Positions 10,696-56,128 of a stretch of 63,477 nt of DNA are shown here, piece after piece. The notes beneath the pieces were generated by a model, which worked only from the letters and a program-made list of their open reading frames with translations, searched no databases and was not told the origin of the DNA. Position 1 is the stretch's first letter. Every line of letters starts with the position of its first letter. This DNA is from Hydrolagus affinis (Eukaryota). Location: the NCBI GenBank assembly GCA_012026655.1, contig JAAILG010001698.1:1-63477 (forward strand). The letters run 5' to 3'. The position numbers and the translations under genes are program-made.

Positions 10696-10801
10696 ATGAT
10701 GTGCTGAGTAAGGATGCTGGAGAATGTGTAATCTGTTTGGAGGAGCTTCTGCAAGGAGACACAATAGCTCGGCTTCCTTGTCTGTGTATTTACCATAAAA
10801 G
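10696..10801 (+). CDS. ZNRF1: E3 ubiquitin ligase ZNRF1, RING-H2 exon (DDVLSKDAGECVICLEELLQGDTIARLPCLCIYHKS)
   Basis: TTTTCCAG acceptor, AG|GTACG donor, 106 bp, phase 1 to 2. ECVIC, LEELLQ and HKS match ZNRF1 rather than ZNRF2. LDHD is adjacent, as in human. Upstream exons were not found in the window. Confidence 0.95.
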
Positions 10802-21346: not shown

Positions 21347-21404
21347 CTGTATAGATTCATGGTTTGAAGTGAATAGATCATGTCCGGAACATCCTTCAGA
21401 CTGA
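21347..21404 (+). CDS. ZNRF1: ZNRF1 last coding exon (CIDSWFEVNRSCPEHPSD*); the exon continues as UTR to the donor after 21444
   Basis: CTCTCTCCAG acceptor, phase 2 start compatible with the previous exon, TGA at 21402-21404, AAAG|GTAATT donor 40 nt after the stop. Confidence 0.95.
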
Positions 21405-33671: not shown

Positions 33672-33855
33672 TCAGCATTCTGAAGCAAGCTTCAGCACTT
33701 TCCCAGGATTCATGATGTTCTTGGGATCCAGTGTGGCCTTGATGTCGCTCATGACCTGCACGCCGATGTCCCCCATCTCTTCGATAAGCAGCTGCTGCTT
33801 GCCCAAGCCTATGCCGTGCTCCCCAGTGCAGGTCCCGTGCATTGCTAGAGCTCGC
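33672..33855 (-). CDS. LDHD: LDHD exon 11 ([19 protein letters not shown]...[13 protein letters not shown])
   Basis: CACGCAG acceptor, 184 bp to TGA, contains the GEHG metal-binding motif. Confidence 0.95.
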
Positions 33856-36800
33856 CTGCGTGTGTGAGTGTGTGCGTGCAAGAGAGAGAGAGGGAGGTGA
33901 TAAAAACGGAAGGTGACATTTAAGTCAAGAATTCAGTCCACGTGTATTTGCAGCTATGCTGGTATGCGAACCAACAGTCCTCAAGGCAAATTGTTTGCTT
34001 ACTTTGCAGCCATTTGGGGGATCTTGCGTTGTGCAAACCTGCTGCACTTGCCAACAATTCCACATGTAAATGTAATGATTTGTTACACCCCAGAGAATTG
34101 TGCAATCATACGCCAGCGTAATTTCACGCATAATATTTTCAGCTGCATAATATTACATAGGTATGTAATGGCCAAACTGCCTGATACCTCCCCCTCTCCG
34201 TCTCTCTTCCTGTCACTCTCTCCGCTGACTCCAGAATGCGACAGGAAGAGAGCGGATATGGCAACGGAGATATGACTCCTAAATAAAAGCATATAAATAA
34301 CAGTAAAGCGAAGTATCAATAGAAAATGGATGAAAACTGGCCTCCATGTCTTTCAAAAGAGGCTACAGTAGTGTTATCTGTATCGAAATGTTTTTAAAGT
34401 GTAATGTTTGCACAATCTTCATATCATTTTAAATTTTTCTGCGCAGGATTCCCTGAGGGATAGACTTGTCTCAGTACCTGGCCAGTCTGCTGGTGAACTC
34501 TTGCACCCGCTTGCTCTCCCCCTCATCCTCGGGATCCAGCAACATCAGGCAATGGAAGTTGCCATCTCCTACGTGGCCTGCGATGGGGCCTGGGGTTGTG
34601 AATGAGAGGGTGTTAGCAATGGACGTTAACATGGGAGACAGAGACACGAGTGGGAGCTCGTTCCGATGGCTTTTAATGAATTTATTCAGTGAGCGCTGCT
34701 CCTCCTCTCCATCCCCCTCAGTGAGAGCTGCCTCTTGACAACAGCTTATATTTATTTGTATAAATTGTATTGAAGCATTGCCCTGCCCCTCTCACAGTGT
34801 TTCCCCCACCAACACCCCTCCATCACCCCACCCATTGAACAGTATCTCTGACTAACTGACCTGTAAGCTTTGACTTCACCAAATCTTCTTTTGTAGCTAC
34901 AATTATTTCGGGCAGTTTGGAGAGTGGGACACAGACATCTGTTGAGTAAACCTGAAAACAAGGAAAACAGGTTATATTGTGTACCATGTGTATCATAATA
35001 ATCCTTGCATTTGATATATCACGTCTCCGAGATGCCTCAAAGCGCTTCACAGAATATACTGAATATGTAAAGTGAATTAATTGTATATTTTATGGGTGAA
35101 ACATGGCAGCCATTTGCGTACAGCAGTGTCCCACAAACAGTCAACGATTGAATGACCAAATTATTCTTTTTTTAAGGGATTATCATCCCCGGAAAAGCGA
35201 TCCACCAGCCAATTACTGCTAGTGAACAGAAGCATGTGGAGTAACGAAACTTGCCCAATGTTTCACACTGCCCGAGAATCGAACCCAGGTCCTATCGCTT
35301 GCGCGGCGAGTGCTCTGACGACTGATCTACGGGTTCCAAGGGTCAGATTCTGGCGTGTGGCTCTGGCCGGGCGGGTGGGGAATGTGGCTGGAGGGCCGAG
35401 CTCACCTTGCAGCCGGGCCTCAGGGCCAGAGCAGAGTACAGGGCATTGTGCCGAGCCTGCCACAGCCTGCTCCGCGTCTCCACGTCCCGCGCCCAGGAGA
35501 AGTCTGAGCCGCTGTTCTCTTTCACTATTCTCTCTGCGGGAGGAACACAGGAAGAGGCAGGAAGAACAGTGTGTAACATAGCAGGTGAGGTAGCATTTGT
35601 CCTACATGCTAAATCTAGTGTCTAATTATCTCTAAATTTCTTCCCTTTGGCACATGCCGCCCTGACTCTATAGTGGAGGGTAAGCCTTCTCTCTCCCACC
35701 CGCAGACACGGCATAGACTGGGATTTGAACCAGTGAGTTCCTGGGTTTGTGAGCTGAAGTTCTACCCCCTGCACGATGGTTAAATGTTCTTTACTGAGTT
35801 TCCCACGGCTTGGGCAATGAGTGGATCATCAATGGTTACCGCAGGACTTTCTGTCTAATGGTCCTGGGTACAGATGTGAGGCGTCTTCCACCATCCACTC
35901 TGTCCTTGCTGATGAGCTCCAATGAAATAGAGCTGTGATCACCTAATGGGAGTGTCTGTAGGGTGAAGACGGTTTCTATTAGATCTCATCAGATCTCACG
36001 AGATCACGGGATTGGTCTGGATGAAAAAAGCCTTTCGACTCAAACAATCTCATTATTCCAGAACCACCCACTCTACTGTCGTTCTCCCCCACCTCCCCCC
36101 CTTCACATCACTGGGCAATCTATTGCAGGCATTAATCAATCTCTCGGTGAAGCAGAATTTCCTGATGTCTGTCCCGAAATTGCCCTTTGCAACCATAAAC
36201 CTGTGTCCTCTTGGTGTCTGCTATCTTGGTGCACAGGGAAGCAGGGGAAGGGGCACGAAGAGGGGAGGGGGCACACAAGGAGGGGAGGGTGAAGAGGGGA
36301 GGAAGGCAGGAGAGCAACTAGGGACTCTAATCCTGTGTAGAGGGTCCTCAGCCAAACGTACAGAGCCTTCCACATCAGAAAGACATCCGAAGTCGCTATA
36401 GCAGCTAAGAGAGCATTACTCCACCTGTCACATGGATTTGATCTTCCAAGCTCCTCTCTGTCCCGTGGAATTCCAGGAAGAGCGTGGAGGTCTCGGTGTA
36501 GTTGAGATTGCTGTAGGTGTTACAGGCCCCAATCATCACATCATCCAGGAACTCTGAGGAGCAGAGAAACTGCAGCCTTCAGTCAACCCACTTGATTTGC
36601 AAGCTGCCTTTCTACCAGGTAAAGATACAGTCGTGTCTGCGTGTGACACTCGTTGATAGTCTTAGTCCCCTCTTCCATTCCAAGTCAGCCATGGCATTCC
36701 GATGTGCCAGACGGAAGAGCATCGAGTGAATGGGTTTCTCTATCCCAGTTTGCAACAAGCAGCACTGCTCCATTCGATGGTGTTCAATGCTACGGATTAG

Positions 36801-39800
36801 AGAGAATAACCAACCCCCATGGCAAGTGCACAGAGGCCTTGGCTGTGTTGTGATTTTGATTTACCAATCTCTTAAAGGGGTTTAAACAGATATTTCAAAT
36901 CTTCCCGATTGGGGAAAAATAAATGTTTTGATGGCAACTAGTTGCCATAAATCCATAATTAACACCCCCCCACCCCACTATTCACAACACTTCATCACAA
37001 GCCGAGGGAGGGAGGGAGGGAGGGCAGGTTTCCTTCTACTAAAATGAAGGTTCTATTTTTTATCTTCTTTTCCATCAGCCTGTTAAGGAAGACCTTTGGC
37101 TTTGCATCATTCCCAGAATTTAATTGTTTATCTATGGTTGACAGACACCCTGAGGGTGAAGGGGCCTATTCCGAGCCTTTAACATGACATTCATTGAAGG
37201 ACATTGGAATCACTATCAATTGGCATCATATCTCTGTGTGTAATTCCGCAAACCTGATGTGTGCTCGTGCCGGCTTATTACCTTTGTCCCTTACCTACCG
37301 ATCCTGGCTATCGGGACCCCGCTCTGCATGGTCTGCACGGTGCTGTCCACAGCTGCCTGGACGGTGGGGAACGAACAGACGGCAGAAACGATGCCTTCCG
37401 GCCTACCATGGAGACGCAGCGTGACCTGGGTTATTAGCCCCAGAGTTCCCTCTGACCCCACAAACAGATTGGTCAGGTTGTAACCAGCCGCCGTCTTCCT
37501 GTGTCACAGAGATTACAACTGGCGTTGGTGTTGGTTTGTCTGTGTCTCTGTGTCTGTGTCTGTCTACCTCTCAGTGCGTGCGCAGACGATTCCTCTTGTG
37601 TTTGCATGTGCGTAAACTTGTGTGTGCTTGTGTACGATGGTTGAACAAGTGTGTGCGAGAGAGATATGTTTGCGTTCACAATTCGGCACACACAAGCCCA
37701 TTTCTGCACGTGTCATCTCCTCCCTTCTCCTGACTTGGTGTTGGGCTCCGTCCCCGTTAAGCGGCTCTGAAACACTGCCCTGTTTGAAGGTCAATATTTA
37801 ATAATAATAATAATCCTTGCATTTGATTTTACGCTTTTCGAGTCTTGTAGACGTCTCAAAACACTTCACAGAATATACTGTAAAGTGAATTGACTGTATA
37901 TTTGTGGGCAAAACGCAGCAGCCACAGCAGCGTCCCACAAACTGTGGGTGATTTCAATTTTCACATAGATTGGGAAAACAAATTGGCAAAAGTAGGTTAG
38001 AGGAGTAGTTCATAGAATGCATTAGAGATAGTTTTTCTAGATCTGTATATGCCGAGGAACCAACCAGGGGACAGGCGATCCTAGACCTTGTTTTGTGTAA
38101 CGAAACAGGACTAATCAGCAATATAGATGTTAAGGCTCCTCCAGGGCAGAGTGACCATAACATAATGGAATTTAGCATTAAGTTTGAGAGTGATGTGGTG
38201 AAGTCCAAAACAAGGGTCTTAAATTTAAATAAAGCCAACTTTGAAGGTATGAGGGAGGATTTAGCTAAAATAGCCTGGGGAACTAGACTAAAGGATATAA
38301 TAATAGACCAACAATGGCAAACGTTTAAAGATATAGTACATACAACAACAACAACAAAATTACATATCTAGAGCACTTTTACGTCAGGAGGACATCCGAA
38401 GGCACATAATTCCCAACAGTCACATATTCCATTGAGAAATAAAAGTATTACAGGGAAAGTGGTTCGACCATGGCTAACTGGAGCAGTTAGAGAAAATATA
38501 AAATGAAGAGGTCTATAATACTGCCAAAAAGAGCAGTAAACCTGAGGATTGGGAGGGCTTCAGGGACCCACAAAGAAAAATAAAGAAACCGATTCAAAAG
38601 AGGGTTTCAAAAGAGGTGACTGATGAGGTAGTGGATGCCTTATGTTTGATCTTCCAAAATTCTCTGGATTCTGGAATGGTTCCCATTGATTGGAAGATTG
38701 AAAGATCGCAAACGTAACGCCACAATTTAAGAAGGGTGGGAGAGAGAAGATGGGGGACTATAGACCTCTTAGTCTGACATTGGTGGTAGAGAAAATTCTA
38801 GAATCTTTAATTAAGGATGTCTTAATGGGGTACTTAGAAGACTATAACATGATTAGGCAGAGTCAACATGGCTTTACAAATGGGAAATCATGCTTAACAA
38901 AATCATTTTAGAGTTTTTTGAGGATGCAGGCTCGAGGGGCCAAATGGCCTACTCCTGCTCCTTATTCTTATGTTCTTATACAATAAGGCTCTATATCTAT
39001 TGCAAGGATTATTATGATTATTATTATGTATGTGAAACCATATCTTGAGACACATTAAATAGTTTGGGACATGACGTGTGCAAGCGACTGCCAGATTGGT
39101 TGAAGGTGAACTGGATAGATCTTGGTCTTCTTTTGCCTTGCAAATTCTGATGTTCTGGTATGCATTTTATTTATATATGGTATAAACATGCATTATTTCT
39201 GAGTCTATGATATAAACTGTTGTTGTGTTTGTGTGTTTGTATGTGGCCCAGGCTACCCCCCCTCCCCCCCACCCCCCGTGTTCAGTACCTGAACCTGCGC
39301 TGTTTCCCTGCGGTGTGCACCACTCTACCGTCCGCCAGCACTACCTGCAGGTTGATGACGTTCTCCCTCATGGTGCCGTAACGCACTGCGTTGGTGCCCG
39401 AGGCACTGGTGGCTGCCATTCCACACAGCGAGGCATCCGCACCCGGGTCTGCAAAACAAATCCGCTCATTTCCCTCGCAAAGTCTGCCGAACACCAGCGC
39501 TGTAAGCGAACCCGCTTGACCCTGTTAGCGCACTCGACCTCGCAAGCGAGAGGACCCGGGTTCAATTCCTAGGTAGGGTCGGAGCGAATCCTTAGGCAAG
39601 TTTCCTGACTCTACACTCCTCTCTTTACCGAGCAGTAAGTAGGAACCTGGTGGTTAGTCGATTGGCAGGTCGCTTTCCAGGGGTAATAAACCCTCCCAAC
39701 CCCCCAAAAATAAATCCGTCATCGAATCCTTCCACCTCGCCCACTCCCTGGCCTCCTTCAAGGCCAGTCACCTTTCATCATGTTTTCAGACATACTCCCA

Positions 39801-42800
39801 TCTCCCCTCCTCTCCACACTCTTGATTCCCTTCACTGTCCAGTGGTTTGGGACATCCTTCCGACATGAAAGGTGCTCTTTCTATGTTGTTGTTGTTGTGG
39901 TGGTGGTGGTGGTGGTGGTGGTGTCCTCTGTAACCAAGCCAGGCGTGCAGTGTTCCTCCAATAGATCACTGGCAATGCTCGACTGGCTCACATTGTACCA
40001 AACTCACCAATCGGAAACCAGAGGCCAGTGTCCCGGAGATAATAATTCAGGCCTTTCCTGGTGACGCCCGGCTCCACCGTAACATCAAAATCCTCGGCAT
40101 TGACTTCTACGACTTTATCCATCCTGGTGAGGTTAAAGCACACGCCACCCTGAGGAGTGAAGACAGCGATGAGGGTCTGAGGAGGGACACACAGAGCGCA
40201 GTACTGTCAGCACCTGAGAGTCTGTAACTCTCATGGTAGCTGAGCGATTGGAACAACTTGATAACACTGGATAACACTGAGATAAGTCAGGTACAGTTGG
40301 GAGAGGCAGATAAATCTAGCACAGATGTTTCCAGTTTCTGTCCACTACGTACACACGTTCCTTGTTAACTTGCTCAACCCTGTCAATGCTAACCTGAGAT
40401 TCCCCCACAACTCAGTAGTTATAATCCTTATAATAATAATAGTAAATAATAATCCTTGCATTTGATACAACGCCTGATCCAAAAAGTATATTGACTGTGT
40501 AGTTGTGTAATATGGGAGTAATAATCCATATAACTTTAATGATCCTTGCGTTTGATGTTGTGTCTGCCTTTCATGTTGGGAGGACGGTATTTTGTAGGCA
40601 AACGCGGCAGCCAACTTGCACACAGCACGAGAACAGGGAACGGGGGCAGCCAAGCGCTATCGGTTTCAAGCCAATAGTCGAGTCTTGTTGTAACAACTTC
40701 TGTTTTGTGAATGGAATTACTGAAATCACTGTGATGCTCAGCAGAGCAAGTTGTTGTGTCCCAGGATTGGCGGGCGAGCTTTCAGCCATTCTTCCCCCCA
40801 CCCCCCTCTGCTTCCTAGGACTCCATCCCGGACTCCCTCCACCTCACCTTTTCCCTACTCAGCTTAAAACCAGCCTAACCCCGACTGATGAAACCTTACT
40901 GACTGTACATTCTGGACTTCTTAATAAATAATCTTTCCATTTAATAGACTGCCTTGAACAACAACAATTTTGATTGATATAGCGCCCTCCACGCCGGACG
41001 GCGTCTCAGAGCGCTTCACAGTAGCGGATCCCAGAATCAATACCAATCATTACATTTGATATAGCGCTTTTCACGTCTTCTAGCCGTCTCAAAGCACTTC
41101 ACAGAATATACGGTAAAGTGAACTGACTGTATGTTTTGTGGCCGAAAGACGGCAGCCAATTGCACACAGCAGTGTCCCACAAACAGTCATGGATTAAAAA
41201 TGACCATTTTTGTTTTGAGGGATTATCATCAGGCGTGTGGAGTAAAGAAACTTGCCCAAGGTTTCACCCTGCATGGAATCAAACCCAGGTCTCTCCCTTG
41301 CTAGGCAAGTGAGCTCCTGTGGCTCGGTGGTTAGAGCACTTGTCTTACAAGCTGGGGAGACCAAGCTGGGGAGACCAAGCTGGGGAGACCAAGCTGGGGA
41401 GACCTGTGTTCGAATCCAGGCAGGTCAGGGCAAAACCTTAGGCAAGTTTCCTTACTCCACACGCCTAATAATAATCCCTCCAAAAAAAACACAATAATAA
41501 AATTGGTCATTTAAATCCACGACTGTTTGTGGGACACTGCTGTGCGCAATTGGCTGCCGCGATTCGCCCACAAATATATACAGTCAATTCACTTTTATAG
41601 TATATTCTGTGAAGCGCTTTGGGACGTTGATAGGATGTGGAAAGCGCTATATCAAATGCAAGGATTATTATTATATAAGTGCTCTAAAAGGGCTCCGTGT
41701 GTGGACATGTGATGTACAGTATTTGACACTCAAACTAACCAAGATTCCTGCCGTGTACATCATGCTGGGCCTCTCCGGCGACCGTGTAACCATGGAAACT
41801 TGGAAGTCTGATGTACTTTGGAGCTATCCTGTGTGTCTGCCTGGTGCACTCTCGCCTCTTGAGTGGCAAGGTTTGCGTTCAAATACCATGTCGCGACTTG
41901 GAATCACATAATCTGGGCTCAACCTCCAATGAAGCGCTGAGGGTGTGTTGAATTGTCGGAGGTGCACATGTGATAAGGCGCTGTACCAAATGCAAGGATA
42001 ATGATGATTATTATTATTAGAATCGTGAAGTTGTTCCTGAAGTTATCCCATCATGAATGGGATTTGAACCACAATCTTGTAATGGTGTCTTTAACCTGTG
42101 TTTTGTTGTCTAAGATTGACTGTGCGCAGTGAGTGACGGGGGAGATCGGGGATGATCCACAGCTCGATGGGTTGAAAAGCAAATATCCTCATTGCACGTT
42201 TATGTAGTGACCACAAGAACCTACTGTACTGATCTGAGCAATGTCATTCAGGTCCACAGACTGTAAAACTTGCCTTGAATTCACAGCCTTTAACAAAATG
42301 TCTCAAAACACTTCTCCGTAAATTGTGGTGATTGTCTGTGTATTTGTAAGCAAGCAAAGGAATAATATCAGGCACTTGGGGGTAAGGAAACTTACCCAAG
42401 GTTTCACCCTTACAGGAATTGAACCCAGGTCTCTCACTTGCAAAGCGAGTGTTCTAACCATTGAGCTACAGGACTGCACAAAGCACCTACCGTCCAGGCA
42501 ACGACTCCTCCCTCCAACCCTGTGCCTGTGCCAAAGGGGATGATTGGGACGTTGTATCTGCAGCAGATTCTGGCTAGACTGCTGACCTGCTCCGTGCTCT
42601 GTGGCCACACCACCACGTCAGGGGGTTGACACCTGTTCAACACAAAGCCACCAGCTCAGAGTCCAAACCATCATCCCAACTTGTAACTGCATCTCCTCTA
42701 TGATTTGTCCACGTCTCCTCTGGGATAATGGCAAACTATAAGGGAAGTGTTACATTTGCTGGGAAGAGGGAATGAGTCAAATTAGCGAGATTACTGCCTG

Positions 42801-46374: not shown

Positions 46375-46656
46375 TGTTACTGTACACACACAGGCTGTTA
46401 CTGTACACACGCAGGCTGTTACTGTACTCACACACTGTTACTGTACACACGCAGGCTGTTACTGTACACACAGGCTGTTACTGTACACACACAGGATGTT
46501 ACTGTACACATGCAGGCTGTTACTGTACACACGCAGGCTGTTACTGTACACACACACTGTTACTGTACACATGCAGGCTGTTACTGTACACACAGGCTGT
46601 TACTGTACACACGCAGGCTGTTACTGTACACATGCAGGCTGTTACTGTACACACAG
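46375..46656. repeat. Minisatellite, about 19-21 bp unit TGTTACTGTACACA(C/T)GCAGGC
   Basis: More than a dozen directly visible copies abutting a gap. Confidence 0.95.
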
Positions 46657-46859
46657 ACTATGTTGAGTGTTGTCAGGCTGGGGGCTGGGGATGCTGCTGT
46701 ACCTGTGTTCGCTGCAGGAGACAGTGTGTCCAGGTGACTCTGCGTTTGACAGCGATGTAAGTGGAGAGTCTGAGAATGGCTGTGTGAGGAGCCATAACTA
46801 AACCTCCCTACTTACTGCTTGCTGATCGCCTCAGAGCAAGCGACAGAGAGCAAAAGAGA

Positions 46860-46991: not shown

Positions 46992-47245
46992 CCCGAGTTA
47001 CTCAGTGTTGATCAAGGATTGTATGTGAAGCCTTTACAGTGGTTCACGTAACACACTGTACAGCAATGGGAAAAGGCTTTCAACTCTGTCCACCAATCAC
47101 ATCATTATCATCTGGCATTTGCTGCAGCTCCTGTCAGTCACACTGAAAAGTCTCAAAGCACAGATTTGAGACGTGGAATTGCTGTTTAGTGTAGTAACTG
47201 TGTGTTTAGGTAAATGAGCGAGGCAGGTCCATCTGCACGAAATGG

Positions 47246-47658
47246 GGCAGCCAATTGCGCACAGCAGTGTCCCACAAACAGTCGTGGATTGAAATGACCA
47301 ATTTTATTATTTGGGGTTTTTTTTTGGACGGATTATTATTAGGCGTGTGGAGTAAGGAAACTTGCCCAAGGTTTTGCCCTGACCTGCCTGGATTCGAACA
47401 CAGGTCTCACGCTTGTAAGGCGAGTGCTCTAACCAGTAACCACTGAGCTACAGGACTCCATTTTCTTGATACCTGAAGAGGATGGAAACTCTATGGTACA
47501 AAGCCCACACTGGTATAGATTGTGCCTGTGTAAGTTACTGTGTGTGTATGAGGAGGTGGGGGAATTGAAGAGTTCTTTCCTAACTAAAAACTCTGACTCC
47601 AAGGCTTGGTGAGACCTGGACCAGAGTTCCAGGTGACTCCATTGTATGCCATTTCACA
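47246..47658. repeat. Local duplication, copy A (SINE part plus about 200 bp of non-SINE flank); copy B at 54883-55313
   Basis: Near-identical sequence, including the diagnostic CTAACCAGTAACCACTGAG and the flank TTTTCTTGATACCTGAAGAGG...GGTGACTCCATTGTATGCCATTTCACA. Confidence 0.9.
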
Positions 47659-49170: not shown

Positions 49171-49363
49171 TCAGTGGTATGGGGTGGGGGAGGAGAAAAA
49201 TGACCAAAGGATACAGTCAAAGAGGTAGGTCTTGAGACTGACCTTGAAAGAGGTGAAGGATGAATCTGGTTGAAAAACATGTTGTCACAAGTATTGGAGT
49301 GAACTGAGCAAAGCAAAGAATGTACATTTTTACCTTATTTTCTGTTTCTCTTAAAGTGCCAGT

Positions 49364-50293
49364 ATGAGGCTATGCAAGAGGAGAGTGCTGTGTCTGTTGG
49401 GCCTCCTTGGATTGGCTTCCCTTGTCTTATGTATGCAGACGCTTTACAACTACGGGCCCAAGGTGCCTTTGAGAAGAAGCCAGGACACAGTTGGGGTTGG
49501 TCACCAGCGACCTCTTCTGCCACACAGCAAATCCCAAACTAAGAGGCTGAATTCTGTGGAGATTATGGAGTCCAACCTGAACCACTTAAAGGCCAAATCT
49601 GCCAGAAAAAAAACACTCAAAGCTGTGGTGAGGCTGTTAGGAAACGATAATGATATTGTAGAGCTTCCTGAAGCTGCACGTAATTCAGCTCTGTTCAAGA
49701 GAAAGGCAAAGTCCGGCCCGTGGTGTCCTCAGTTGGGTTGGTTTGACTCCACGGATCTTCTCAAAGGGTTGGCCTCCAATGGTCCAGTCACCTGGTTCAG
49801 TCAGAAAGACAAGGAACTGTTGAGGTTCCTGACCCAGGGATCTGTCCAGAAGATGGACTATCTCACCAGACATAGGCAGATGGTTCGAGTCATCCTGGCC
49901 ACTAACACATCTTCCCCTGTAGATGGCAGTAGAGACCACTGCAGAGCGGGAGTTTGCGCGCTTGTGAGGGAGCTCACCAATCTGAATGAAGTGGCAGCTT
50001 TCCATTTGGACAGGATCTTGGGCTTAAACGTCAGCCAGCCCGTGGTGTCTCGCCAGCTGACCTCCTGGCTCCTGCCCCACAGATTTACCGACGGTCACGC
50101 CAGGCCAGTGCTACGGTGGGACCCGGGCATCTCTCTGCCCCAAGGTGCCAACCAATACCAGGATGCCTACTTTGCCCGCATGGTCCAATACCCGTCCATC
50201 TTCAAACTGTGCGGCACAAGGAGCGACGGTGTGTGTCACCAGAACACTAGCCCGGAACTGCAGAAGATTAAACTCTTAGATTATTTCCTCCAG
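49364..50293 (+). CDS. FAM198/GASK1 (Golgi-associated kinase)-family protein, large first coding exon (310 aa)
   Basis: N-terminal basic plus hydrophobic signal anchor. TWFSQKDKELLRFLTQGSV, CRAGVCALVR, EVAAFHLDRILGLN, FTDGHARPVLRW and LLDYFLQ match FAM198A/B blocks as I recall them. Acceptor TTAAAG just before the ATG, CAG|GTAAGA donor (phase 0). Confidence 0.9.
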
Positions 50294-50739
50294 GTAAGAG
50301 AGAACGTGTGTTTATGGAGCCACTGATCACGTCTCAAAATAGACATTCGCCCACCTCAATTCCTCACTCCATAGGCTGCAGATCATCCAGAACTCTGCAG
50401 CTCATGTCCTCTCGAGGCTCTGCAAATCTTTCACCCCCATTCTCGCCCAACGCCACTGGCTTCCCATCACACAGAGGATTCAATTCAAGATCACCTTCAA
50501 GGCCCTCCATGGCCTTGCCCAATCCTAGCTCTGTGACCTCCTAAACCCCTACCAACACTCCGTTCCCTCTGCCCCTCTCTTGCTCGCTAACATTGTCTTC
50601 TTGGTTCCCCTCTATTCTTGGTAGGTTTTTACTATCTTCTATGGTGAAGACAGTCCCTCATTTGTACCTTTGATTTTACTTTGGTTCACCTGTACCTCGA
50701 AGGATTTTACTTTGAAGTGTAGTGACTGTATTATGTGTA

Positions 50740-50900
50740 GGGGCAACATCCCACAAAACAGCCATGTTATCTGGGGGATTGTTGATCAGGATGCCTGGAG
50801 AAACTTGCTTGTCTTTTTATATAGCGCCATGGGATATTTAACAGGCACAGATGGGAGCCCGATTTAATGTCTTATCTGAAAGACGGCACCTCCGACACTT
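50740..50900 (-). mobile_element. Older Deu-SINE fragment
   Basis: GCCATGGGATATTTAAC...CGATTTAATGTCTTATCTGAAAGACGGCACCTCCGACA is the reverse Deu core. Confidence 0.7.
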
Positions 50901-51453
50901 ATCGAGTTCAGGGTCAGGCACAGTATTCAGATAGAAGACACAATACAAAAGAAATTGCAGGAAGTTGTGACTGAATTTTACACTCGAGCTTATGTGGCTT
51001 TTAACCACAATAGTGTTGGGGCTGCAAACTGCCGCGTTTCTCTTTGTGAGCAAATCGTCTCTTTGAGTCAAGGCAGAATTAGGTCATCTTGTGTAGTCTG
51101 CGCTGTAGCCTCTCATATCACTGTCTGTGATGGTGTAACACAACAGAAACCTCGCCTTCTCGCTCAGACATCCTGTGCTGTTCAAATATCATTCTCGTCA
51201 TCCCTCCCCTCGACTGAGCCCCTGGTAGATGAGTTGTCTCAAGCTCAAGGCGATACATGCCTCTTCAGTGTCTCACTAACTCTCTTGCCTCCAGCCGCAG
51301 TCGGCTCCATTTCACCTCTGTGTTTTTCACTGATTCTCGCTCTCTGCCCCCCTCACCCACGACAGCATACCTGCCCTCTGTGAGGAAAAAGTGTGTGAGG
51401 CAGTGCATTGTCACTGAATCCGATCAGTCCTCACAGATGCACCCAAACCCAAA

Positions 51454-51563
51454 GTGTGTGTGTGTGCATTTGGATGTGTGTGGCGTGTTTGAGTGTGTGT
51501 GTGTGTGTGTGTGTGGTGTGTCTTTGTATGTGTGTGTGGGTGTGTTGTGTGTGTGTGGGTGTG
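51454..51563. repeat. Imperfect (TG)n microsatellite
   Basis: Directly visible. Confidence 0.9.
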
Positions 51564-52234
51564 TTACTGGGTAACAACTTGCATTTACGTGGGGTAGAGT
51601 CCCGGAGTAATACTATAATATTACTAATATTATAGTACTGCAATAATATTTGCTTCTCTAAGTCCCACAGTTGAGACTGGGATGTAATGTCATCAGCAAT
51701 GCCCTGTAGAACTGCAGACCTGTTCAGCTCAGGAACTGCTACCGAGGTTCGACTCGATTCCGACAGTCAGTTGACAGAGCACATTCAGTTGGGTTCGCTT
51801 TGTGGGAGACACCGTTTACCTGCCAGCTTGCCTGCTCCCCGACAACCCCCAACAAGGAAAAATCTACTAATTCAGGAGAGGATAGTAATTATAATGCTTG
51901 CATTTGTTACAGTGCCTCACATCACGTCTTCTAGACGTTTCAAAGGGCTTCACGGCATGTACTGCAAAGTGTATGTTTCGTGGGCGATGAGAAAATCATT
52001 GGAATCAAATCTTTTGTTCTACGAGGTAATCACTGTGTGAGAGGCAGCGAGGTTTTTCAGTCTTGCGAGGGCTTCGGAGCTGATTGATCTTAACTCTCGG
52101 CAGTGGAAGGGTTAGCTGCTTTTACGTTTGAGATCTGCCGTGAGAGATAACCTCGTCACTGTTGCTGGCTGCTGTACTGATTAATCACTTTCTCCCAGCG
52201 CAATCTCGGCCTGTCAGTCACAATCCTGTTGGCA

Positions 52235-52334
52235 NNNNNNNNNNNNNNNNNNNNNNNNNNNNNNNNNNNNNNNNNNNNNNNNNNNNNNNNNNNNNNNNNN
52301 NNNNNNNNNNNNNNNNNNNNNNNNNNNNNNNNNN
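52235..52334. other. Assembly gap (100 N) inside the FAM198-like intron
   Basis: Run of N. Confidence 1.
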
Positions 52335-53789
52335 ATGAAAGGAGGGAGTCTAGGACACAATTATACAGGCTCAAGTACACATTTTATCTTTTGACTATTG
52401 GATAACAAGGGGCTGGAGACTGGGATGTGGTGGGGGGGAAGGGGGTGGGGGGGTGGAACGCAGTCTATTTTTATATCCTTGTCTGACAGCCTGAGATTGT
52501 ATTTTTAAAGCCCCTGAACACCCCACCACCACCTCCACCACACACACACACACACACATACACACACACAGTGTGAGTTGCTTTCTGCAGGAGTGACTAT
52601 TTAAAGGTCTTTATTGAATTACGAAAGTCTCTGCAAAAGGTTTGACCTTAATCCCAGAGGTTTGAACTAATCTCTCTGCCGCTTCATTACTGCCGCTTTA
52701 ATGGTCTGCCAGCGACTTTGCAGTCTCACAATCTGACAAGCTGCATTCTGGAAGGAGCTGGTCTGATCTCAGTCAGGTAGAGTTGAGCCAAAGCACTGAG
52801 CCTCTCAATCCCGAGCCTGACACGGAATAGGATCAATGCCAACCAGAGCAGCTTGAATCTATACAGCGCCCTTTAAGCAGGATAGGATACCCCCTTTGAT
52901 TTTATTCTTCCAGAATACCCACCCAATACTGTCCTCCCATTACAATATTAGGCCACGTCTTAAATGAGTCCAGCTTTCTTTAGCCACCCTTCCTGGTGTC
53001 TGTCCTCACAAATTGCACTCATAACCTTGATTGTCTAGTCCTATCTGACAGTATAGTTCCAGGTTTCCTACACCCCATCAAGCATTATGTTGTACAGGGC
53101 GATCAAAATGTTGTGAATCTATTGCAATGTTTAATAAATCTTAAAGAAATGATGATAATGTATATATTTTTAGATAGCAAGGTAGCGTCACGATTTTTTA
53201 CTCACCCTGTCTATTCTTCTGGTGACTTTGAGACTTCTCTTTTCAAGGATAAATCACCCTAGCTCTATCCAGTCACTCCTCTTAGGTCATTCCTTTTAAC
53301 AATGGCCATTATCCTCATTGCTCTCTTCTGTTCTGTCTCGAGTGATACCCGCTTAACTGCACACACACACATTGTTCCAAGTGCTGCACTCTACAGCTTC
53401 AGCACGACGTCTGGGGTTCTCAACTCAACTGATTTGGCAACCTCGTCCAGCTTTGTTTGCCTTGTTCACTATGGCTCACAGTGTTTTCTATGTGTTGAGG
53501 GACAAGTTAAAGTACACCCTCAAGTCCCTTTCCCTTGCCAAGCGTTAGCCCACCCAAGCAGTCAGTGTTGTTGCAGTCCCAAGGAGAGACAAAGAGCTAA
53601 AGGCAGGAGATGAGCAGTTGATCATTGATATCCAGCAATGAATTGGAGAAGAGCGTTTTGCCAGGGAGTTAATTAACTCCACCATTCACCATTCACTATT
53701 CACCATTCATCTGTACTTGCTGATTCTTCAAGGTCTGGTACCAGCAACTTGCGTTCATATACCGTTGTGCCTTTCAAATTGGATGATAT

Positions 53790-54103
53790 TAACAATCCTT
53801 GCAAGTGGTATAGCACTTTTCACATCTTATCGAGGTCTCAAAGCGCTTCACATAGCTTATTGTAAAGTGCATTGACTGTATATTTGTGGGTGAAACGTGG
53901 CAGCCAATTGCGCACAGCAGTGTCCCACAAAGAGTCGTGGATTGAAATGACCAATTTTATTGTTGTGCGTTGTTTTTGGAGGGATTATTATTAGGCGTGT
54001 GGAGTAAGGAAACTTGCCCAAGGTTTTGCCCTGATCTGCCTGGATTCGAATACAGGTCTCACGCTTGTCAGGCGGGTGCTTTAACCACTGAGCTACAGGA
54101 GCT
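53790..54103 (-). mobile_element. tRNA-derived SINE
   Basis: Near full-length match to the family. Confidence 0.9.
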
Positions 54104-54344
54104 CAGCAGATATTGTATAACAGAGAGCACTGAGCAGGAAAATGGAAATTTAAGGATCTTGATCCCAAAATCTTGGTCAAAGAAATATGTTTTGAAGAAG
54201 GTTTTGAATGCAAGAAGAGAAGAAACAAGCCAACGAGATTTTGGCAGAGCCTTCCAAAGGTCAAAACTCAGCCACTAAAAGTAGGAGTTGACATTAAAAC
54301 CCTTTTTGTTGTCAGCTAACTTGTTTTTCTTATTATTCTCTCAG

Positions 54345-54418
54345 GAAGATGAGATGCTTTCAGCCGGTTCTGACCACAAAAAGGATCGGAATTCTGTGAC
54401 CTTCGTAGGTTTGGATTG
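54345..54418 (+). CDS. FAM198-like penultimate exon (EDEMLSAGSDHKKDRNSVTFVGLDW)
   Basis: CTAAC branch point plus TTGTTTTTCTTATTATTCTCTCAG acceptor, TG|GTGAGT donor. The 74 bp run phase 0 to 2 and exactly bridge the flanking exons. FVGLDW|LP aligns with family LEGIxx|FP. Confidence 0.75.
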
Positions 54419-54782
54419 GTGAGTGTAAGTGCAAGGGTGTATGAGAGGTCGACTGGCATTTACAGAGTAGACAGACACCAACTCCTGGCAATAAGACAAC
54501 AGAGTAATGCACAGAGAGTCTCACTCCAGGAAAGGAAGGGTGGGATAAAGCTGGAATGGCGGGAGAGGGGTTTGGGAGGAGGTTAAGTGAGGAAGAATGA
54601 GTGATGGAAGAGTGACTGAGATACATTGCTAGGCCAAGGGGTGTGTGGGCGCAATGAGGAAGTGGGTGACAGTGTGGGTAATGACTGGAGTAGGGTGTGT
54701 GTGAGGTGGGGAAATGCCAAAGGGCAAATTAAGTCAAGGTAGGGCAAGGGGCACCCAGTTCTCCCCTTTAGGGTCATTTCTT

Positions 54783-55091
54783 AATAATAATCCTTACATT
54801 TGCTATAGCGCTTTTCACGTCTCAAAGCGCTGCACAGAATACGCTGTAAAGTGAATTGACTGTATATTTGTGGGCAAATCGCGGCAGCCAATTGTGCACA
54901 GCAGTGTCCCACAAACAGTCATGGGTTGAAATGACCAATTTATTATAGTTTTTTTTTTGAGCGATTATTATTAGGCGTGTGGAGTAAGGAAACTTGCCCA
55001 GGGTTTTGCCCTGACCTGCCTGGATTCGAACACAGGTCTCACGCTTGTAAGGCGAGTGCTCTAACCAGTAACCACTGAGCTACAGGACTCC
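54783..55091 (-). mobile_element. tRNA-derived SINE (part of duplication copy B, which extends to 55313)
   Basis: Full-length family match. Confidence 0.9.
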
Positions 55092-55389
55092 ATTTTCTTG
55101 ATACCTGAAGAGGGTGGAAACTCTATGGTACGAAGCCCACACTGGTATAGATTGTGCCTGTGTAAGTTACTGTGTGTGTGTGTGTGTGTGTGAGGGGATG
55201 GGGAGTGGGTGGGGGAATTGAAGAGTTTCTTTCCTAACTAAAAACTCTGACTCCAAGGCTTGGTTGAGACTTGGACCAGAGTGCCAGGTGACTCCATTGT
55301 ATGCCATTTCACACAGATCCAGCAGGTGGAGCTATTAATGGGGATGTACTGCTGCCATTCACTGTTACAAGCTCTTGGGCAAGAGTTAA

Positions 55390-55772
55390 TATTAATAATC
55401 CTTGCATTTGATACAGCGCCTTATCACGTCTTCAAGACGTCTCAGCGTGATTCACAGAATATACTGTAGAGTGAATTGACTGTGTAGTCTATAACGCGGA
55501 TGAAACGCGGCAGCCGATTGTACACAGCAGTGCCCCATAAACAGCTGTGAATTGAGTGACCAATTTATTTGTTGTTTATTTTGGAGGAGTTTTTACATCC
55601 GGAAAAAAACGATCTGCCAATTGAGTAACACCCAGGTTCCTACTTCGTGCTAGGTAAACAGAGGTGTGTGGAGTAAGGAACCTTGCCCAACCTTTTGCCC
55701 TTGTGGGAATCGAACCCAGGTTCTCTCGCTTGCCATTCATGAGTGCTCTAACCACAGAGCTACAGGACTCCA
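55390..55772 (-). mobile_element. tRNA-derived SINE, long subfamily
   Basis: Contains the extra CCAGGTTCCTACTTCGTGCTAGGTAAACAGAGG segment. Confidence 0.85.
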
Positions 55773-55929: not shown

Positions 55930-56128
55930 GCTGCCTCGCAAAACTCTGGAGGTTATTTCCTCGGGGTGTCTGCCTGGATCGCTGGTGCGCTCTCTGTATG
56001 GAGACCAGGAATACTGGCTCAGCAAGAGCCCACGCGAGGTGGGCAACCTGGTGGAGAGAATCGGCAAAAGAGCCAACGCGTTTCTGAAGCGCATCCGTGA
56101 AAGGCAACGGAAGAAGGCGTTGGTGTAA
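55930..56128 (+). CDS. FAM198-like last coding exon (LPRKTLEVISSGCLPGSLVRSLYGDQEYWLSK...KKALV*)
   Basis: CTCAG acceptor, phase 2 start. SGCL..L..SL..D..YW.S matches the FAM198A/B C-terminal block. TAA stop. Confidence 0.85.

Follow-up and report, generated by a model that had tools for sequence, protein, structure and literature searches.

Background

The FAM198/GASK1 proteins (Pfam PF15051) are among the least understood kinase-like proteins of the secretory pathway. Among the closest described systems is the FAM20 family, which provides a precedent for the pairing of a pseudokinase with a kinase that is its paralog (PMC4421793). FAM20A retains its catalytic Asp, its metal-binding Asp and the ion pair, with a Glu-to-Gln substitution as the sole change (PMC4421793); it binds adenosine triphosphate (ATP) without metal (PMC7948968), and it docks via the long loop between strand beta3 and helix alphaC at the FAM20A/FAM20C dimer interface (PMC5865150). 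GASK1A (FAM198A) is said in another report to phosphorylate matrix proteins (PMC13170776). Here we describe a GASK1-like gene in a contig of Hydrolagus affinis (assembly GCA_012026655.1, contig JAAILG010001698.1, positions 1 to 63,477; the whole of this stretch of 63,477 nucleotides is referred to as the window). The gene resembles GASK1A in its signal anchor, its two-exon Pfam match and its big first coding exon ending in LQ, but together with its orthologs (hereafter the clade) it lacks approximately 51 residues and four cysteines that are present in GASK1A. It is apparently an undescribed third jawed-vertebrate GASK1/FAM198 paralog, for which we use the name 'GASK1C', and judging from its sequence it is likely a conserved, functional secretory-pathway pseudokinase without phosphotransfer activity, membrane-anchored in the Golgi or secreted.

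Structure of the gene

The three coding exons (Table 1) together form an open frame of about 400 amino acids, with canonical splice sites throughout. The first exon, for which there are two candidate acceptor AG dinucleotides (49355–49356 or 49361–49362), encodes the signal anchor, stem, kinase N-lobe and beginning of the C-lobe and ends in LLDYFLQ, directly followed by the donor gtaaga in phase 0. The short second exon has a good acceptor and a good donor. An initial annotation, made from the letters of the window alone, had assigned this exon the correct phase and noted that it lacks the LV(Y/F)IDN motif, both of which stand, but placed the end of the gene at 54418, whereas the gene continues to the last exon.

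Both the first exon (94.4 bits, profile positions 11–178) and the last exon (34.7 bits, positions 255–314) score above the Pfam FAM198 cutoff of 25; the short exon matches nothing in the same search, and coverage of the profile is confined to these two segments. The Pfam scans of the window took in 296 of its 523 open reading frames of at least 50 amino acids. Hydropathy predicts the N-terminal signal anchor that is typical of FAM198/GASK1 proteins, and the protein carries three N-glycosylation sequons. The closest protein is the Callorhinchus milii (elephant shark) ortholog, with 79% identity, while full-length matches in sharks show 42–46%.

Absence of the catalytic segment

When clade and intact proteins are aligned, a single block of about 51 residues is absent from the former, comprising the DRLD..CCGF..HIL segment and LVYIDN. 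We built a hidden Markov model (HMM) of the corresponding exon 3 from 43 intact sequences, which gave 73–86 bits on three intact controls (all used in training it). Across the six frames of the window, with stops read as X, it reached at most 4.0 bits, and the catalytic-loop segment was thus not found. A motif scan and seven candidate phase 0–0 exons in the intron 50294–54344, its gap at 52235–52334 being unread, yielded no RLD..CCGF, and no relic of the catalytic-loop exon was detected in the sequenced portion of this intron. The statement of the initial annotation that no (V/I)xxRLDxxCCGF exon follows LLDYFLQ therefore holds for the sequenced intron, and the xxDRLDxxCCG(F/Y) segment of intact, kinase-type FAM198 members is missing from the gene as far as the window is read. 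The metal-binding LV(Y/F)IDN motif is missing as well, there being no [IVL]DN in the short exon, which is approximately 10 codons shorter than the counterpart exon of intact genes; an HMM of the latter (exon 4) gave no positive score on clade controls.

The initial annotation had also proposed closing the assembly gap. It is bridged by no contig from two DNA runs, and contigs from one of these end at both gap edges; the mapping of reads from four runs at 90% likeness was dominated by repeats.

The lost segment appears to bear the residue that aligns with the catalytic Asp of FAM20 kinases, on a numbering that we infer as follows. The motif LFDFLLQvHDR of the intact profile aligns with SIFDFLIGNADR of hydra Fam20, in a weak second stretch anchored by a significant match at EIAAFHLDR. 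The aligned hydra Asp in SIFDFLIGNADR is chain residue 277, which would correspond to Asp299 given an offset of 22, derived from the alphaC Glu at chain residue 135, placed five residues past Asp152. We take LVYIDN to be the counterpart of the metal-binding Asp478 motif of FAM20C. Asp299 is described as the catalytic base in PMC5865150, and D478 and D458 of FAM20C are named in PMC4421793.

A 2014 gene model of C. milii contains a 31-residue insert at the exon join, which was considered as a candidate for the missing exon and rejected, because both CCG and DRLD are absent from it and the exon-3 HMM does not match it. This insert matches the intron in the window at 52401–52424 (8/8 residues), where there is no AG acceptor, and at 52714–52776 (15/21 residues), where acceptor and donor are plausible (phase 2 to 0); these stretches may represent a minor exon or intron sequence that has been conserved. 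A separate observation concerns the intact-type GASK1A record P0035, which omits exactly the catalytic-loop exon, in frame. This may be a prediction artefact; if genuine, it would show that such skipping is possible in the parent gene.

Orthologs across jawed vertebrates

Sequence searches and name look-ups yielded 27 full-length ortholog records from 22 species (duplicates within species subtracted): elephant shark, 13 sharks, a skate, two stingrays, coelacanth, axolotl, sterlet, two bowfins and spotted gar. DRLD, CCG and [IVL]DN were found in 0/27 of these records. Four further records were kept outside the count because they are incomplete (P0011, P0014) or have alternative C-termini (P0134, P0140), and on reading them none of the motifs was seen. 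Since all 27 records come from other assemblies, their shared lack of the segment settles the question of whether it lies in the gap of the window. Ends of the LL(D/N)YF(F/L)Q type (with a conserved Gln/Lys) are joined straight to the short exon in 24 records, and the short exon measures 23–26 residues in all 14 orthologs examined, compared to 35 in five intact proteins. The claim of the initial annotation that the gene is an intact but catalytically dead homolog is thus well supported, the loss being common to the jawed-vertebrate orthologs (27/27 records).

Three stingray records (P0015, P0139, P0140) show a 24-residue insert at the exon join that is unlike the lost catalytic exon, and which is possibly a new exon in stingrays.

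Among 118 representatives from one sequence search, eight were clade members; an apparent ninth, P0126, scored nearer to the clade and was discarded as a repetitive non-homolog. No teleost, frog or amniote member was present among the named matches, which, given the limited reach of the searches, is an absence of match and not proof of loss. Intact GASK1A is recorded alongside the clade gene in five species (C. milii, coelacanth, gar, axolotl and basking shark), where the two are separate genes.

The RefSeq models named 'Golgi-associated kinase 1A-like' in sharks, rays, coelacanth, axolotl and gar are orthologs of the window gene, and the kinase in their names stems from automatic annotation. 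Among the matches listed in a literature search whose reach excluded most subscription journals, we found no description of these orthologs as a paralog or pseudokinase, and a search of one supplement of PMC13450315 gave no match.

Residues, cysteines and stem motif

As the initial annotation had noted, the beta3 motif reads CALVRE (49955–49972), with Arg202 (codon AGG, 49967–49969) where 39/39 intact FAM198 proteins have Lys. The intact set has Lys in beta3, Asp at -3 and the alphaC Glu in 39/39 cases; the window has Arg, Asn and Glu at these positions, with Asn206 in place of Asp and Glu209 retained. The reading of the Lys change in that annotation as a sign of catalytic loss does not extend to the clade, since in the 27 orthologs the position is Lys in 18, Arg in 8 and Trp in one. 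The substitution is a detail of this lineage and not a clade feature, and as the defining lesion it is ruled out. The alphaC Glu is retained in 25/27 records.

Five cysteine columns are retained in 9/9 clade rows, and the four cysteines of the missing insert are gone in 9/9. The clade stem is shorter than that of GASK1A and has a motif of its own, LLGNDND in the window and WLGEDNE in most orthologs, found in 24/28 clade sequences (window included) and 0/46 intact full-length FAM198 proteins. The third codon of the short exon in the window (54351–54353) encodes Glu, and an acidic residue at this position is in register with either lost Asp.

Phylogeny and structural model

The clade forms one side of a branch supported at 100/100 in both of our trees (45 rows, and 32 rows without the middle exons; 12 of the 32 rows are without the last-exon block). 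Rooting the 32-row tree on invertebrate deuterostomes places the clade together with the lamprey gene and GASK1A (100/99) and separates it from GASK1B; the stem branch of the clade amounts to 0.9 changes per site. The window protein groups with the C. milii ortholog at 100/97. The lamprey record P0036, named GASK1A, retains all catalytic motifs; its grouping with the stripped clade is weak (82/93) and its composition is biased, and it may be an intact ortholog or a long-branch artefact. We infer that a GASK1A-type gene was duplicated, and that the loss of about 51 residues occurred a single time before the split of cartilaginous and bony fishes.

An AlphaFold2 model of the C. milii ortholog, based on an 87-row alignment rich in intact paralogs, has a mean predicted local distance difference test (pLDDT) score of 76.6 and comprises a transmembrane helix (residues 5–30, pLDDT 79–97), a disordered stem, the N-lobe with strand 200–204 (beta3) followed by helix 210–221 (alphaC), and the C-terminal helices; the short-exon region is a low-confidence coil (pLDDT 58–69). 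In the structural comparison suggested by the initial annotation, the top matches of this model are FAM20 structures (Z 11.9–13.1, root mean square deviation 3.2–3.9, 202–212 residues), with PI4K2 behind at about 10, as expected for a lumenal FAM20-type kinase fold. Given the alignment used, the model shows compatibility with this fold, not folding of the deleted protein.

Selection and expression

Alignment of the window protein with its C. milii ortholog over 398 residues gives 92 differences and not one stop; under neutrality about five stops would be expected at 0.056 nonsense per missense change, with a probability of about 0.006 for none (hand estimate). Eight exon differences among those listed from reads comprise five missense, three synonymous and no stop, too few for a ratio of nonsynonymous to synonymous rates.

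The RNA data come from one single-cell library, sequenced in two runs and prepared from an unspecified tissue of a near-identical organism; 27–30% of the runs was read. The initial annotation had proposed looking in RNA for a direct 50293–54345 junction, and the joints shown for this library include no exon junction. Away from the edge that overlaps a repeat, all RNA reads inside the big exon differ at 50002 and 50006 (6/6 and 27/27), and these differences are absent in both DNA runs; the RNA reads are therefore probably from another locus.

Function and alternative explanations

The combination of a modelled kinase fold, missing catalytic residues and an intact frame makes the product of GASK1C a probable pseudokinase. 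It shares with FAM20A the FAM20-type fold (Z 12.3–12.5, ortholog model) and the status of a vertebrate paralog of a kinase-like gene without catalytic residues. It is far more stripped than FAM20A, however, and is not a pseudokinase of the same type, as the entire catalytic loop is deleted and not a single Glu changed to Gln. We propose that a GASK1A-type gene was duplicated in early jawed vertebrates, and that one exon and approximately 10 codons of the next would have been lost once before cartilaginous and bony fishes separated. Loss of the catalytic Asp and of the four insert cysteines would make phosphotransfer impossible. Selection may then have retained the signal anchor, five cysteines, beta3/alphaC core and C-terminal helices together with the new stem motif, and the retained core and motif could act as a folded surface for binding other lumenal proteins.

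Several observations weigh against a conserved functional pseudokinase, or against a FAM20A-like role for it. The clade evolves faster than GASK1A, with 28–42% compared to 56–64% identity in 6/6 species pairs, and 53% compared to 74% between chimaera and basking shark, although this is as expected if catalytic constraint has been lifted. The ortholog sequences come from gene prediction, and the RNA support behind them is not visible; 3/27 records have inserts at the exon join (31 residues in the 2014 C. milii model, 24 in two stingrays), none of which scores against the lost segment. In the RNA library described above the short and last exons are without depth and no exon junction is among the joints shown. 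The paralog-rich alignment biases the structural model toward the intact fold, and a model from eight clade rows alone failed (pLDDT 32). An acidic residue lies three positions past the conserved Gln, in the register of the lost Asp, in 10/15 sequences. The loop between beta3 and alphaC, which lies at the interface in FAM20A, has only six residues in FAM198 proteins compared to about 25 in FAM20C; the Lys-Glu spacing is accordingly 7 in the clade gene and 26 in human FAM20C (K285/E311, PMC4421793), so that the interface of FAM20A is not matched. Lastly, according to a 2021 review, FAM198A and FAM198B had not themselves been credited with any kinase activity (PMC7948968).

The possibility that the catalytic exon is concealed in the gap, which would make this a normal intact GASK1 gene, is hardly credible, even with the 100-N placeholder sitting in the right intron and bridged by no contig, because the orthologs from other assemblies are without the segment and IDN is missing from the sequenced short exon too, so that two hidden exons would be needed. 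Slow decay of a functionless pseudogene would fit the faster evolution, the lack of exon reads in the single RNA sample examined and the missing teleost, frog and amniote matches, and protein databases take in intact models only; it is nevertheless very improbable in view of the open frame and canonical splice sites in the window, full-length frames in 22 jawed-vertebrate species, a near-constant short exon, conserved cysteines and a clade-specific motif in most sequences. An atypical enzyme or nucleotide-binding sensor, its active site rebuilt from the acidic residue of the short exon and the N-lobe Lys, Asp and Glu, is also improbable, if a little less so. The frequent retention of the Lys and the alphaC Glu, the acidic residue at the Asp register and the metal-free ATP binding reported for FAM20A (PMC7948968) speak for it, but no position is invariant (Arg and Asn in the window, Trp and His in axolotl, no Glu in bowfin), the remaining 5/15 sequences have Ala, Gln, Lys, Pro or Gly instead of the acidic residue, and the region is a low-confidence coil in the model.

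The identity of the partner is less clear than the pseudokinase character of GASK1C itself. GASK1A, its parent paralog, is the most likely partner of a putative lumenal binding protein, yet even given a functional pseudokinase we put its being the partner at less than half, and the FAM20A-activator analogy drawn in the initial annotation is structurally loose. A variant that differs in the partner only, in which the same dead protein acts apart from GASK1A as a shed or secreted ligand or as a matrix or glycan binder, is a serious possibility that falls somewhat short of an even chance: it would accommodate the stem motif not found in intact paralogs, the short counterpart of the FAM20A/FAM20C docking loop and the three sequons, and has against it the family precedent for pseudokinase-kinase pairing between paralogs (PMC4421793). 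The fullest version, an unrecognised genome-duplication paralog whose whole catalytic loop was shed as jawed vertebrates arose and which has since been a dedicated Golgi controller of GASK1A, is unlikely; if true, it would be a second secretory-pathway pseudokinase-kinase pair, made by exon deletion instead of a point change, surviving in sharks, coelacanth, salamanders and non-teleost fish but gone from teleosts and amniotes.

The persistence across jawed vertebrates of a paralog without the catalytic loop makes it likely that the family has a non-catalytic function. Residues invariant only in intact copies, which would serve catalysis, can be set against those kept in both, which would serve folding or binding, providing a map for mutagenesis of GASK1A and GASK1B. 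The orthologs occur in animals used in the laboratory (catshark, axolotl, gar), and the annotation of genes named kinases in at least 22 species is corrected.

Neighbouring genes and other features of the window

Table 1. Coordinates of the GASK1-like gene, its parts and neighbouring genes in the window
Feature	Position	Strand	Details
GASK1-like first coding exon	49364–50293	+	310 codons, ATG at 49364
Predicted type II signal anchor / transmembrane helix, residues 8–26	49385–49441	+	Kyte-Doolittle 19-residue mean 2.19
Stem motif LLGNDND	49634–49654	+	clade-specific
beta3 to alphaC segment	49955–49990	+	Arg202, Asn206, Glu209
Intron between first and short exon	50294–54344	+	position of catalytic-loop exon (VHDRLD..CCGF..HIL) in intact paralogs
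Assembly gap inside intron	52235–52334		100 N placeholder, real size not known
Short exon	54345–54418	+	74 nt = 24 codons + 2 nt, phase 0 to 2
Last coding exon (C-terminal helices)	55930–56128	+	stop TAA at 56126–56128
LDHD-like D-lactate dehydrogenase exons	33675–42655	-	FAD_binding_4 + FAD-oxidase_C
Two last coding exons of RING ligase	~10700–10800 and 21350–21400	+	convergent with LDHD-like gene

The LDHD-like gene, whose best solved match is mitochondrial D-lactate dehydrogenase (E 1.9e-20), points away from the GASK1-like gene. The RING gene is presumably of the ZNRF1/2 type, named from its motif, and we take ZNRF1-LDHD to be the human 16q23 pair, in a region presumed to have paralogs near that of GASK1A; this offers a lead only towards a genome-duplication origin of the paralog. 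Fragments of a LINE-type (long interspersed nuclear) element lie within the LDHD-like gene (38009–38908, forward strand), with a weak RVT_1 match at 38702–38908.

A tandem repeat with a unit of about 20–22 nt (46375–46660) adjoins an assembly gap. Several copies of a highly abundant short interspersed repeat (47240–47640, 53790–54100 and 54780–55770) dominate read depth in the DNA and RNA runs.

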